The notes under the pieces are model-generated. The model searched no databases and had not been told where the DNA came from. It saw nothing but the letters and a program-made list of their open reading frames with translations. From the sequence record NC_019720.1: 44,120 nt of DNA; one strand, written 5' to 3'. Source of the DNA: Enterobacteria phage mEp213. The position numbers were made by a program, and so were the translations under genes. Shown here in pieces: positions 39,604 through 44,003 of the stretch (position 1 is the first letter of the stretch; each line of letters starts with the position of its first letter).

Positions 39604-40246
39604 TGGCAGCAAATACCGAAATATTTGGGTAGTTGGCGATCTGCACGGATGCTACACGAACCTGATGAAAAAACTGGAGACGATAGGATTCGACACCAAA
39701 AAAGACCTGCTTATCTCGGTTGGCGATTTGGTTGATCGCGGTACAGAGAACGTCGAATGCCTGGAATTAATCACATTCCCCTGGTTCAGAGCTGTACGTG
39801 GAAACCATGAGCAAATGATGATTGATGGCTTATCAGAGCGTGGAAACGTCAATCACTGGCTGCTTAATGGCGGTGGCTGGTTCTTTAATCTCGATTACGA
39901 CAAAGAAATTCTGGCTAAAGCTCTTGCCCATAAAGCAGGTGAACTTCCGTTAATCATCGAACTGGTGAGCAAAGGTAAAAAATATGTCATCTGCCACGCC
40001 GATTATCCTTGTGACGAATACGAGTTTGGAAAGCCAGTTGATCATCAGCAGGTAATCTGGAACCGCGAACGAATCAGCAACTCACAAGACGGGATCGTGA
40101 AAAAAATCAAAGGCGCGGACACGTTTATCTTTGGTCATACGCCAGCAGTGAAACCACTTAAATTTGCCAACCAAATGTATATCGATACCGGCGCAGTGTT
40201 CTGCGGAAACCTCACATTGATTCAGGTACAGGGAGAAGGCGCATGA
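39584..40246 (+). CDS. ninI: Ser/Thr protein phosphatase (lambda NinI/PPase)
   Basis: GDLHG, GDLVDRG, RGNHE metallophosphatase motifs; start trimmed to MRYYERIDG. Confidence 0.9.
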
Positions 40247-40866
40247 GACTCGAAAGCGTAGCTAAATTTCATTCGCCAAAAAGCCCGATGATGAGCGACT
40301 CACCACGGGCCACGGCTTCTGACTCTCTTTCCGGTACTGATGTGATGGCTGCTATGGGGATGGCGCAATCACAAGCCGGATTCGGTATGGCTGCATTTTG
40401 CGGTAAGCACGAACTCAGCCAGAACGACAAACAAAAGGCTATCAACTATCTGATGCAATTTGCACACAAGGTATCGGGGAAATACCGAGGTGTGGCAAAG
40501 CTCGAAGGAAATACTAAGGCAAAGGTACTGCAAGTGCTCGCAACATTCGCTTATGCGGATTATTGCCGTAGTGCCGCGACGCCGGGGGCAAGATGCAGAG
40601 ATTGCCATGGTACAGGCCGTGCGGTTGATATTGCCAAAACAGAGCTGTGGGGGAGAGTTGTCGAGAAAGAGTGCGGAAGATGCAAAGGCGTCGGCTATTC
40701 AAGGATGCCAGCAAGCGCAGCATATCGCGCTGTAACGATGCTAATCCCAAACCTTACTCAACCAACCTGGTCACGCACTGTTAAGCCGCTGTATGACGCT
40801 CTGGTGGTGCAATGCCACAAAGAAGAGTCAATCGCAGACAACATTTTGAATGCGGTCACACGTTAG
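40243..40866 (+). CDS. Q: Late antiterminator Q (lambda-like)
   Basis: 207 aa, matches lambda Q from memory, including the Cys zinc motif. Confidence 0.9.
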
Positions 40867-42088: not shown

Positions 42089-42522
42089 GCAGAGTAACCG
42101 CGATTATCTCCGCTCTGGTTATCTGCATCATCGTCAGCCTGTCATGGGCGGTTAATCATTACCGTGATAACGCCATTACCTATAAAGAACAGCGCGATAA
42201 GGCCGCATTCATTATCGCTGACATGCAGAAACGTCAACGCAATGTAGCAGAACTCGACGCCAGATATACAAAGGAGCTTGCTGATGCTAACGCGACTATC
42301 GAAAGTCTCCGTGCTGATGTTTCTGCTGGTCGTAAGCGCATGCAAGTCGCCGCCACCTGTGCAAAGTCAACGACCGGAGCCAGCAGCATGGGCGATGGAG
42401 AAAGCCCAAGACTTACAGCAGATGCTGAACTCAATTATTACCGTCTACGAAGTGGAATCGACAGGATAACCGCGCAGGTTAACTACCTGCAGGAGTACAT
42501 CAGGACGCAATGCCTTCGATGA
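42085..42522 (+). CDS. Rz: i-spanin Rz
   Basis: N-terminal transmembrane segment plus coiled coil, lambda Rz-like. Confidence 0.85.
42284..42469 (+). CDS. Rz1: o-spanin Rz1 (lipoprotein embedded in +1 frame of Rz)
   Basis: Signal peptide with VSAC lipobox, Pro-rich mature region; AAGGAG RBS inside Rz. Confidence 0.7.
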
Positions 42523-42815
42523 TAGCGATAATTCTACTCATCATCCTTCACATCTGGCTCTGTAGACAGGGTGGTGATCACTTCTGGAGTGAATCCAGAT
42601 TAAACATCTCATTGCTGATGCTTGAAGTTAAGCATATGGCGCGCGGCAAGGGGCTGCGTTGAGATAAGAGCCAGTTCATTACAAAGCCTATCTACGGGTG
42701 GGCTTGATAATGGATATCCCCGCAAGCGGATAATATGGTTTTTATCCCCTGCGGGGTATAAATAGGACTTGCAAATGCGTGGTTTATCATTTTGAAGCCA
42801 ATGACAGGAGTGGGT

Positions 42816-42974
42816 ATGACACTTGAAGAACGAATTACAGCTTTAGAAAAGGCAGTCACATGCATTGTGAATGAAAAGCAAGAGGACACAACTGCCTTTG
42901 TTGATAAAATTATTCAGGAGATGCGTCAGTCCTCAGTATTTTCGCAGCTTCTAGAAAGGCCTCGTGAAGATTAG
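42816..42974 (+). CDS. Hypothetical small protein (52 aa)
   Basis: AGGAG RBS; 3' end overlaps a convergent gene by 65 nt; TATAAAT box and hairpin upstream. Confidence 0.35.
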   Translation: MTLEERITALEKAVTCIVNEKQEDTTAFVDKIIQEMRQSSVFSQLLERPRED

Positions 42975-43170
42975 GGATGTTTTTAACACGTTCAGGATCA
43001 AGTTTTTCCTGGACAAATTTTGTCAACCCATCATATAAATCTTTGTTCGGGTACAGCTCATTAACTGCTTTAATTAGTGCTCCAAAAGCAAGCTGATTTG
43101 CTATTTTTTGTACGGCTAATTCTTTTTCTAACTGCTCAACCTTTTCTTTTAAACCAAAACCTTCTGACAT
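42910..43170 (-). CDS. Hypothetical helical protein (86 aa)
   Basis: AAGGA RBS 7 nt upstream of ATG; coiled-coil-like sequence. Confidence 0.5.
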   Translation of the reverse strand: MSEGFGLKEKVEQLEKELAVQKIANQLAFGALIKAVNELYPNKDLYDGLTKFVQEKLDPERVKNIPNLHEAFLEAAKILRTDASPE

Positions 43171-43299
43171 TTTTGATTCCTTATTCTGAGGTAATCAGCC
43201 ATTACTCTTTATTAAGTGCGCCAGTGTCCCACCACCGACGGGCTGAATGCCTACATTAACCAGGGTTAAGACGAAACAACACCCTGATATTCAAACAGT

Positions 43300-43323
43300 A
43301 GCCGCCATCACGCGGCTTTTTTA
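43300..43323 (+). terminator. Intrinsic terminator (+ strand)
   Basis: GCCGC-N5-GCGGC hairpin followed by T6. Confidence 0.5.
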
Positions 43324-43435
43324 TGCGCATCGCACGCGCACATCGTAGAAAGTCTTTCAGCTGTGAGCCTGGGCAAACCGTTAACTTTCGGCGGCTTTGC
43401 CGTGCGACAGGCTCACGCCTAAAAGGAAATAAATC

Positions 43436-43903
43436 ATGGGTCATAAAATTATCACGTTGTCCGGCGCGGCGACGGATGTTCTGTATGCGCTGTTTTTCCG
43501 TGGCGCGCTTCAGTCTGGTGATCTGCCAGCCAAATCTGGTGCTGCTGAGCTTCTAGAGCTGGGATTCGCTGAAACACGCCATACCGCGACGGAGTATCAA
43601 AAGGAAAATTATTACACCTTCCTGACCGCTGAAGGGCAGGAGTTCGCCATTAAGCACCTGGTGAATACGCGCTTTGGTGTTCCTGCTGGTGGTTATATTG
43701 GTGGCTCTGTAAATATTCAGTTTGGCCGGATAGAGAACGACCCACGAAAAGGCTATGCCATCAATGTTGGCATCTGTCCCGAAATTAAGACCGGCGTGAA
43801 GCTATCCCCTGAAATGGTAAAAGCGATCTCAGATGTTGTGTCCGAGGAACTGAAGAAGAGTCTTCGGCCAGGTGGCACGATATGGTCAGCGCTGTCGCGA
43901 TGA
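43436..43903 (+). CDS. Hypothetical protein (155 aa) between lysis cassette and cos
   Basis: AAGGA RBS; preceded by a long compound dyad at 43363-43416. Confidence 0.5.
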   Translation: MGHKIITLSGAATDVLYALFFRGALQSGDLPAKSGAAELLELGFAETRHTATEYQKENYYTFLTAEGQEFAIKHLVNTRFGVPAGGYIGGSVNIQFGRIENDPRKGYAINVGICPEIKTGVKLSPEMVKAISDVVSEELKKSLRPGGTIWSALSR

Positions 43904-44003
43904 ATGGACGTTTAGACGTCCAAATTGGTGCGAATCAAGTCGCATTCACGCAAATGATAATCATTATCATTTGCGGGTCCTCCCGGCAGGGTGGCCTGCC
44001 ACG

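Follow-up and report, generated by a model that had tools for sequence, protein, structure and literature searches.

Phage lambda carries bor, the classic lysogen-expressed moron, downstream of Rz, where it lies antisense to the late operon and is expressed from the prophage. Opposite-strand transcripts also overlap in cis-antisense pairs such as hok/sok, symE/symR and lambda oop/cII, and T4-type phages are said to have mobile regulatory cassettes, the PeSL elements of ~50 bp that Arbiol et al. reportedly described in 2010. Here we set beside these and other known systems a pair of small convergent genes in the lambdoid phage mEp213. The window, by which we mean the whole stretch of 44,120 nucleotides (nt) that was analysed, is the record NC_019720.1 of Enterobacteria phage mEp213. 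In it, a minus-strand gene for a protein of 86 amino acids (aa; 42910-43170) converges on a 52-aa open reading frame (ORF; 42816-42974) on the plus strand, the strand of the late operon.

Two described systems lie closest to this pair. One falls under the moron concept (Juhala et al., 2000; Cumby et al., 2012, PMC3594210). In the record of HK97 (AF069529), gene 22 is labelled "moron product" and gene 23 "reverse moron product", and the terminators of both strands are marked; HK022 (AF069308) has genes 22 and 23, with gp23 called "srb protein", and ES18 (AY736146) has genes 24 and 25. A literature search on the HK022 "srb" and on "reverse moron" found nothing. The other is the taiEcA/atiEcA pair of phi80, in which TaiEcA is a defence protein that blocks tail assembly and is made in the lysogen, while AtiEcA, encoded in the late operon, is its counter-defence; TaiEcA falls upon Q expression, and the arrangement was termed a "non-contiguous operon" (He et al., 2024, PMC11364771).

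We find that the mEp213 pair very likely belongs to a cassette of the HK97 type, judging from a homologous leader, gene order and terminators. The fuller reading, which we favour as somewhat more probable than its alternatives taken together, is that the region is a mobile accessory-gene cassette of the HK97 gene 22/23 type, set backwards in the late operon, with a cargo gene that would be expressed from the prophage and opposed by late antisense transcription.

Results

A leader shared with HK97, HK022 and ES18

On the strand of the 86-aa gene, and directly upstream of it, lies a conserved leader (43171-43299) that would comprise a promoter and a 5' untranslated region (5' UTR) of ~78 nt. By blastn, this leader occurs in HK97, HK022, ES18 and HK633 at 74-87% identity over 85-93% of 160 nt, and it is also found in SPN3UB and further phages. 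It lies between I and J in HK97, flanks genes 22/23 in HK022, and flanks genes 24/25, between M and L, in ES18. The mEp213 locus thus pairs a homologous leader and terminator with convergent ORFs. Because the leader is homologous and the order and the terminators correspond to those of HK97, HK022 and ES18, the locus has the classical arrangement of a moron and a reverse moron, of which the mEp213 pair would be a new member.

The leader extends well beyond these phages. The stretch 43171-43323 matches 148 E. coli genomes at 75-87% identity, in unannotated DNA, and in each E. coli locus that we inspected the leader stands directly 5' of a different small minus-strand gene in the late region of a prophage. 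An exact-pattern scan for the leader core (43229-43250; pattern CCACCACYGRCGGGCTGAATGC) recovered 93 viral contigs; besides these and the E. coli genomes, the leader was found in 25 phage records and on nine plasmids, all non-mobilizable and of phage-like size (28-51 kilobases, kb). Scanning genome contigs, with one genome per species, gave four true matches (two in Enterobacter, the others in Dryocola and Kluyvera) along with chance matches. No paper containing the leader core sequence was found in a literature search, and it appears that neither a leader shared by at least 13 cargo classes nor the small late-strand family treated below has been described so far. Three loci (L019, L022 and L059; loci are cited by L numbers) each have two nhmmer matches to the leader model, the second only partial in L022 and L059, and a single prophage may carry more than one cassette.

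Interchangeable cargo on the strand opposite to the late operon

The start codon of a minus-strand ORF lies 56-59 nt from the leader core in ~100 instances. The products of these ORFs, which we call the cargo, are 50 distinct proteins in 13 BLAST clusters. The 105-nt leader core has a mean pairwise identity of 82% over 65 variants, and similarity between variants remains high through the Shine-Dalgarno (SD) sequence and collapses at the start codon. This comparison across phages shows a junction at the start codon, where one leader meets no fewer than 13 cargo classes, unrelated as judged by BLAST clustering. The 86-aa family of mEp213 is the largest class, with 43 instances; others are DUF1883 proteins, a 154-aa aspartyl-protease-like protein, proteins of 178 and 210 aa, and several families of 63-98-aa proteins, mostly helical.

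Of ORFs of at least 150 aa within 4 kb, 105,572 aa lie on the late strand (the plus strand of the leader) and 6,218 aa on the other, and part of that minority consists of the large cargo genes themselves. Since the large flanking ORFs are nearly all on the late strand, the cargo is antisense to the late operon in nearly every instance. This orientation is found at no fewer than six insertion sites in phages: after Rz, as in mEp213; between the DUF1327/ydfR gene and the lysozyme gene; upstream of the holin gene; between tail genes M and L; upstream of M; and between I and J.

One cargo class of 73-aa proteins (cluster 1, e.g. L030 and L017) includes the HK022 gp23 "srb protein" (L137, 1275-1496). 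Its similarity to the RssB anti-adaptor IraP is weak (hhalign probability 40% over 45 columns, obtained with an approximate IraP query), and we regard it as a lead only. For the 86-aa family, the idea of an IraP-like anti-adaptor was rejected at an hhalign probability of 0.1%.

Promoter-like element, helices and terminator of the leader

On the minus strand, the leader contains a -10-like hexamer, TAATGT (43258-43253), from which transcription would start near 43247. The form of this hexamer is TAnnnT, with T1 and T6 present in 65/65 variants and A2 in 64/65; TAAGGT is the commonest version (46), followed by TATGTT (9), TAATGT (5, including mEp213) and four rarer ones. We infer that the leader carries a weak sigma-70-type promoter (TTGYTT-N15-TAnnnT, start near 43247) followed by a structured 5' UTR. 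A sigma-54 promoter, raised by a match to TGGTGGGACACTGGC, was rejected on inspection, as its -12 GC is lost in L124.

Four helices can be drawn in the leader: P2 (43220-43226 with 43233-43239), P1 (43196-43200 with 43241-43245), P0 (43188-43190 with 43205-43207) and P3 (43260-43266 with 43281-43287), the last lying upstream of the -10 element. With a start near 43247, the 5' UTR would hold P2, P1 and P0, and both P3 and the plus-strand terminator would be upstream of the start. A compensatory change from CAGTG/CACTG to CAGCG/CGCTG is complete in L124 and L130. Where only one side of P2 or P0 has changed, the resulting G.U pair forms only on the minus strand (64 and 19 cases). The proposed split, with P2 and P0 in the minus-strand 5' UTR and P3 upstream of the start, would agree with this strand test, although the G.U result as a whole is mixed.

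A search of the whole window found no Rfam family for the leader at the gathering threshold, and a search of 14 other variants found none at E <= 1. With the threshold relaxed to E <= 5 for the region itself, IsrK (RF01394) alone came up; it was considered and rejected: it scores 17.6 bits against a threshold of 50 (E = 0.39), in mEp213 only, and the match is carried by the terminator. AgvB/AsxR anti-small RNAs and Pas small RNAs (sRNAs) were likewise set aside, as they belong to another locus, the Q-S moron site, and measure 51-60 nt.

The right end of the cassette is formed by an intrinsic terminator on the plus (late) strand, AGCCGCCATCACGCGGCT followed by T6 (43300-43323), detected by pattern scan. 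It persists with altered stems in other variants, for instance GCCACCTAAGGTGGC and GCCACCTCCGGGTGGC, and the HK97 and ES18 records list its counterpart as a putative terminator; variants such as L005 are entirely without it. An earlier note on this DNA had named it the only terminator on that strand and had concluded that a plus transcript would be fully antisense to the minus gene. It is indeed the sole canonical intrinsic terminator on the plus strand before the next gene, and every transcript of the late operon necessarily crosses the 86-aa gene in antisense.

The 86-aa gene and its terminator

The 86-aa gene (mEp043_070, phrog_21164) is preceded by the SD AAGGA (43182-43178), 7 nt before its ATG. 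Searches returned eight close homologues of its product, which are 70-99% identical to it and come chiefly from Enterobacter; a library of 1.84 billion proteins contributed nine representatives at the 50%-cluster level. We fetched 11 related loci that encode 86-aa homologues, with amino-acid identity down to 70%, which makes 12 loci with mEp213. Both ORFs of the pair remain open in all 11, whether the pair adjoins one lysis cassette or another or, as in L010, separates tail genes M and L. Outside the overlap, the ratio of nonsynonymous to synonymous polymorphism (pN/pS) of the 86-aa gene is 0.14-0.35, and by this measure the gene is under strong purifying selection.

The product is acidic and soluble, with no hydrophobic stretch and no signal or lipobox. 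Its AlphaFold2 (AF2) model is all-helical, with a predicted local distance difference test (pLDDT) score of 68, and a Foldseek search of this model against the PDB returned nothing with E < 5. Neither the 86-aa nor the 52-aa protein has a significant match in Pfam or NCBIfam, and PADLOC gave 0 hits. A likeness of the 86-aa family to the N-terminal domain of lambda CI (helices 3-5; E = 0.0056, domain independent E value 0.21) was rejected as too weak. In that PDB hmmsearch, which was not significant enough, residues 28-78 of the 86-aa protein include the stretch FGALINAINAL, set against VGALFNGINAL.

A hairpin with the stem AAAGGCAGU...ACUGCCUUU, a large variable loop and then UCUAAAG (42841-42899, minus strand) begins 11 nt past the stop codon of the cargo and lies within the small ORF. 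The stem and the U-tract are invariant in five divergent relatives, with the inner pairs varying somewhat, and a 15-nt deletion in L010 falls in the loop. The pattern scan missed this hairpin because its loop exceeds 8 nt, and the earlier note does not mention it. The records of HK97 (gene 23) and ES18 (gene 25) mark putative minus-strand terminators in the corresponding position, and 42841-42899 is probably the intrinsic terminator of the 86-aa gene.

The late-strand ORF

The 52-aa ORF (mEp043_069, phrog_28630) has the SD AGGAG (42806-42810), 5 nt before its ATG, and overlaps the end of the 86-aa gene by 65 nt (42910-42974), so that its C-terminal 21 codons are antisense to that end. Among homologous cassettes, the overlap measures 65, 44, 32 or 18 nt, or is absent. 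In mEp043 both ORFs are annotated as hypothetical; the 2025 re-annotation of mEp213 retained the 86-aa gene and dropped the 52-aa ORF. All 12 loci have the ORF intact, which is true of no other frame. In L010, the small ORF stays open despite the 15-nt deletion, which is in frame. The earlier note had reported the coordinates of both ORFs, their ribosome-binding sites, the overlap and an upstream hairpin and TATAAAT box, all of which are present as described, and the convergent cis-antisense layout that it drew from them is real and conserved in relatives. It would have taken conservation of only one of the two ORFs in relatives as evidence against its reading; both are conserved.

The subfamily of the 52-aa ORF has a conserved N-terminal motif, M-T-L-E-E-R-I-x-A-L-E. 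A profile search extended the family to ~30 protein clusters of 47-124 aa from Enterobacteriaceae (Enterobacter, Citrobacter, Salmonella, Phytobacter and E. coli) with the common N-terminus M-[TSP]-L-[EA]-x-R-[VIM]-x-x-[LI]-E. Across six subfamilies whose DNA is divergent, codons 2-13 differ 74/58/124 times at codon positions 1/2/3, and an SD lies 6-9 nt upstream of the ORF in all six. Leucine codons of the small ORF also show synonymous double changes. From these patterns we regard the 52-aa ORF as a genuine gene whose N-terminal helix is conserved and whose C-terminus is free to vary. Its translation describes an acidic, soluble, helical peptide without a hydrophobic segment. The homology searches of both peptides that the earlier note had proposed did find conserved families, and found no toxin or defence family.

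An ORF of this MTLEERV type stands on the late strand in 34 of 106 cassettes, across five cargo classes. Conversely, in all six contexts that we fetched through the small-ORF family, antisense cargo and leader follow, and each small-ORF subfamily pairs with one cargo class. In other cassettes, a YdfR/DUF1327-like late gene takes the position of the small ORF. One small-ORF homologue matches weakly a PHROG annotated as antitoxin (E = 0.007). The 52-aa and 86-aa profiles align over 13 columns, in a short N-terminal motif of coiled-coil type (hhalign probability 47%). Paralogy of the two ORFs was considered and rejected, as BLASTP gave no alignment and the profiles match over those 13 columns only.

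Hairpins and promoter-like sites on the plus strand

Two similar hairpins, TATCCCCGCAAGCGGATA (42715-42732) and TATCCCCTGCGGGGTATA (42743-42760), lie on the plus strand upstream of the 52-aa ORF, and the TATAAAT (42757-42763) abuts the second of them. The pair folds with z = -2.63, and the stems are preserved through altered sequence in L006, L014 and L023 (in L014, for example, CCATGACATGG). The hairpins are confined to cassette copies that follow lysis genes and are absent from the tail-region copies L010, L016, L038 and L058, in which the small ORF comes directly after the upstream late gene, without hairpins or TATAAAT. The small ORF adjoins the upstream late gene in those copies and is thus better regarded as an ORF of the late operon than as an independently promoted antisense gene. 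A reading of the TATAAAT and hairpin, both listed in the earlier note, as the promoter of the plus-strand ORF does not hold for them.

The sole promoter-like site of the region lies inside the small ORF (42883-42910, plus strand; AGGACA-16-TAAAAT with an upstream TG). It would yield an RNA that is antisense to the entire 86-aa gene and stops at 43323. Relatives do not keep the first T of the -10, having CAAAAT or GAAAGA instead, and no conserved plus-strand promoter was found in other cassette variants.

Limits of the cassette and its surroundings

The region is 100% identical in mEp213 and mEp043. The window is a complete lambdoid phage genome, running from the terminase genes to cos, and the ORF pair therefore lies at the distal end of the late operon, which depends on Q. 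From Q (40243-40866), the order continues with holin (S), lysozyme (R), Rz/Rz1, a 50-aa ORF, the ORF pair, a 155-aa phi80-like ORF (orf66 homologue) and cos.

The whole cassette, moron and reverse moron together, spans ~42713-43323, between the Rz/gene-65 module and the phi80-like orf66 module. On the left, homology to Sf6 and P22-like phages (Rz and gene 65) stops at ~42712. On the right, homology to phi80, mEp237 and HK639 begins at ~43311-43319; the right flank (43311-43440) is common to these three phages, which have other inserts there. In a multi-locus alignment, homology across differing genomic contexts is confined to the cassette. Three marks of a moron are found here: extra DNA between genes that are adjacent in related phages; a base composition unlike that of the neighbours (GC content 0.34-0.41 within 42800-43300, versus 0.47-0.53 in the flanks); and its own terminators, the minus-strand hairpin with U-tract at 42841-42899 and the plus-strand terminator at 43300-43323. 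For a fourth mark, a promoter of its own that is active in the repressed prophage, the leader has the nearly invariant TAnnnT, but a consensus sigma-70 site was found in no variant.

Several features around the cassette are worth recording. The 50-aa ORF (42510-42662, plus strand) overlaps the end of Rz, belongs to phrog_11822, resembles Sf6 gene 65 and has a strongly hydrophobic N-terminus; it may encode a small membrane protein of the lysis module. At the left junction lies TGATAATGGATATC (42705-42718), which resembles half a Fur box; the Sf6-like homology ends within it, and it overlaps the first hairpin. To the right, 43324-43435 forms a separate non-coding module upstream of the 155-aa ORF, with a long inverted repeat, GTGAGCCTG...CAGGCTCAC (43365-43373 and 43409-43417). 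This module is found at 92-98% identity in phi80, HK639, mEp237, mEp390, Salmonella phage FSL SP-016 and Aeromonas phage AsXd-1, and the HK639 record labels its counterpart a terminator. Between the 155-aa ORF and cos lies a perfect 25-nt palindrome, GCAAATGATAATCATTATCATTTGC (43950-43974), whose core, TGATAAT-C-ATTATCA, we take to fit the Fur-box consensus. The phi80 record has a "putative Fur-regulated protein" nearby.

Discussion

If the mEp213 locus works as the arrangement suggests, then the weak leader promoter would drive synthesis of the 86-aa protein from the repressed prophage. Upon induction, polymerase that starts at PR' and is modified by Q would read on through the cassette and the terminator at 43300-43323; the 52-aa ORF would thereby be translated, and RNA complementary to the full cargo mRNA would be made and would reduce expression of the cargo. 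The same logic has been demonstrated experimentally for phi80 taiEcA/atiEcA, in the same slot (PMC11364771). Because of this analogy and of the constant antisense orientation, we propose expression of the cargo in the prophage and its opposition by late transcription, a switch for and against which we see the case as evenly balanced. The 86-aa protein could then benefit the lysogen, through exclusion or defence, and the 52-aa protein, made late, could be its partner or could neutralise it; the former is speculation and the latter a guess in which we place low confidence. A role of the pair in defence and counter-defence is, on the present evidence, doubtful.

Several observations weigh against the reading as a late-opposed prophage cargo. 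No consensus sigma-70 promoter was detected in the leader of any variant; its -35 is poor and its spacer is 15 nt. One-sided changes in P3 and P1 favour the plus strand, leaving G.U pairs there in 16 cases vs 6 and in 5 vs 0, and the leader folds better on that strand (z = -2.69) than on the minus strand (-1.31); together, these suggest that part of the leader may act as a plus-strand RNA. Carried further, the leader would be mainly a plus-strand sRNA module, made of P3, an A/U-rich spacer and a terminator resembling an Hfq-type 3' end. Late or read-through transcription would supply this RNA, which would target the 5' UTR and SD of the cargo in cis, or else work in trans, with the cargo merely docking beside the module. 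The compensatory stem changes of the terminator and the weak resemblance to IsrK (17.6 bits, E = 0.39) would suit such a module. It is nonetheless an unlikely account: the SD and a constant distance of 56-59 nt link the leader to the minus-strand cargo, the asymmetry of P2 and P0 (64 and 19 cases) favours that strand, the -10-like TAnnnT is conserved on it, the 14 other variants have no Rfam match, no conserved plus-strand promoter was found, and variants such as L005 are without the terminator. Nor do we give much to the converse idea, that the minus transcript itself is the active agent, an antisense RNA directed at late transcripts of incoming related phages, with the 86-aa ORF incidental. 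Prophage antisense RNAs to late genes can exclude superinfecting phage, as STnc6030 of BTP1 does (PMC7067206), and the cargo transcript is antisense to the late strand. Strong purifying selection on the 86-aa ORF and free variation of the cargo between otherwise similar phages speak to the contrary, and a transcript stopped at the cargo terminator would be complementary to the cassette only, not to essential late genes; we consider this explanation very improbable.

The remaining counter-evidence concerns the proteins. When TaiEcA and AtiEcA were compared by BLASTP with every cargo and small-ORF protein, no match had an E value under 0.46, and neither the 86-aa nor the 52-aa protein has homology to any defence family. 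As two thirds of the cassettes have no MTLEERV-type ORF, the cargo does not in general need such a partner. Within its own subfamily, the small ORF has a pN/pS of 0.66-0.81, a weak protein-level constraint that an antisense frame nearly matches (0.62), and its conservation coincides in part with the terminator stem, on which its LEKA codons fall. One could therefore argue that only the 86-aa gene is functional and that the 52-aa frame is held open passively by the terminator hairpin and the 3' coding end of the cargo, which would accord with substitutions in the 65-nt overlap tracking the cargo frame and with its removal in the 2025 re-annotation. Passive openness does not readily explain an N-terminal motif kept in six DNA-divergent subfamilies (74/58/124) and common to ~30 clusters of 47-124 aa, synonymous double changes at leucine codons, an SD at 6-9 nt in every subfamily, or a frame that survives a 15-nt deletion, and we hold it to be improbable. 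If the pair were instead a toxin and its antitoxin, or a toxin controlled by antisense RNA, as the earlier note suggested, then one of the peptides would be toxic, to be neutralised by the other or by the antisense transcript. Convergent overlap with full antisense coverage is real, each small-ORF subfamily does keep to one cargo class, and the shared 13-column motif and the weak antitoxin-PHROG match (E = 0.007) point the same way. Yet neither product has a hydrophobic or membrane segment as in type I toxins, and the AF2 model is soluble and helical; type II systems are co-directional operons, whereas the mEp213 pair is convergent; PADLOC, Pfam and NCBIfam have no matches; overlap length is not conserved; cargo is interchangeable, the small-ORF family standing also beside the aspartyl protease and other unrelated cargo, and most cassettes are without the small ORF; and no conserved plus-strand promoter for an antisense RNA was found. 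A toxin pair is, in our judgement, quite improbable, and the reading as a mobile cassette with prophage-expressed cargo is the one we retain.

A broader version of that reading, which we put forward tentatively and think rather unlikely to hold in full, makes the leader a plug-and-play platform of promoter, 5' UTR and back-to-back terminator, the cargoes lysogen-expressed defence or host-modulating factors switched off by late antisense transcription, and the MTLEERV peptide a generic counter-factor. If so, recombination would couple the leader to a cargo repertoire of at least 13 classes with fast turnover, in every case antisense to the late operon, and the tai/ati logic of phi80 would extend to the reverse morons of HK97, HK022 and ES18. 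Should the model hold, many unannotated small genes in lambdoid late operons would gain a common reading, among them reverse morons known for 25 years. In practical terms, the leader core CCACCACYGRCGGGCTGAATGC with a start codon 56-59 nt away offers a handle for mining prophages for fast-evolving accessory genes, which may be defence, exclusion or host-modulating factors. As mEp213, mEp043 and HK97 grow on E. coli K-12, the cassette would also be a tractable system in which to study antisense switch-off upon induction.

Among known systems, the most distant parallels are regulatory. Like the leader, PeSL is reportedly a short conserved promoter/stem-loop module beside diverse accessory ORFs, a likeness that suggests shuffling of cargo by recombination at the module; it is said to belong to another phage group and to an early rather than late strand context, and has no sequence relation to the leader. 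As in pairs of the hok/sok kind, late-strand RNA in mEp213 covers the SD and the coding region of the cargo. Unlike in those pairs, there is no small hydrophobic toxin, no conserved promoter for an antisense RNA was found, the cargo is interchangeable and the overlap variable.

Closer parallels are positional. Lambda bor and the 86-aa gene both follow the lysis cassette in antisense orientation. Bor is a lipoprotein with a signal peptide, whereas the 86-aa and 52-aa ORFs have neither signal or lipobox nor a Pfam match, and L005 has both an iss/bor gene and a leader cassette, in separate positions. The earlier note had placed the pair in the slot where lambda has bor; this is indeed a moron slot, and phi80 has tai/ati there too. 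The phi80 genes taiEcA (orf63) and atiEcA (orf64) occupy the exact slot of the mEp213 pair, upstream of the conserved module and the orf66 homologue and before the packaging genes. In both phages, the Q-dependent late operon is broken by a gene on the minus strand, next to which stands a small partner on the late strand. The two differ in that Tai has 204 aa, in that the 5' ends of tai and ati overlap by 20 nt in divergent orientation whereas the mEp213 pair is convergent, and in that phi80 is without the conserved leader (no match by nhmmer). Just upstream of the shared module, phi80 (L128, ~1455-1490) has CAGGTAATGAATCCTGATATAAAGACAGG, resembling P3 and the CCTGATATTCAGACAG spacer of the leader, which may be a decayed remnant of a former cassette beside tai/ati.

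The closest relatives remain HK97, HK022 and ES18. They differ from mEp213 in cargo (HK97 gp23 and ES18 gp25 fall into other classes and HK022 gp23 into the 73-aa class, all unrelated to the 86-aa protein), in the late-strand partner of HK97 and HK022, which is not of the MTLEERV family, and in insertion site, as the cassette separates I from J or M from L in these phages but follows the lysis genes in mEp213. Like mEp213, all three have a late-strand ORF, a convergent minus-strand ORF overlapping or abutting it, the leader, a terminator and then the next late gene; all three have a minus-strand terminator in or beside the late-strand ORF; and in all three the cassette is a low-GC insert between genes that are adjacent in other phages.

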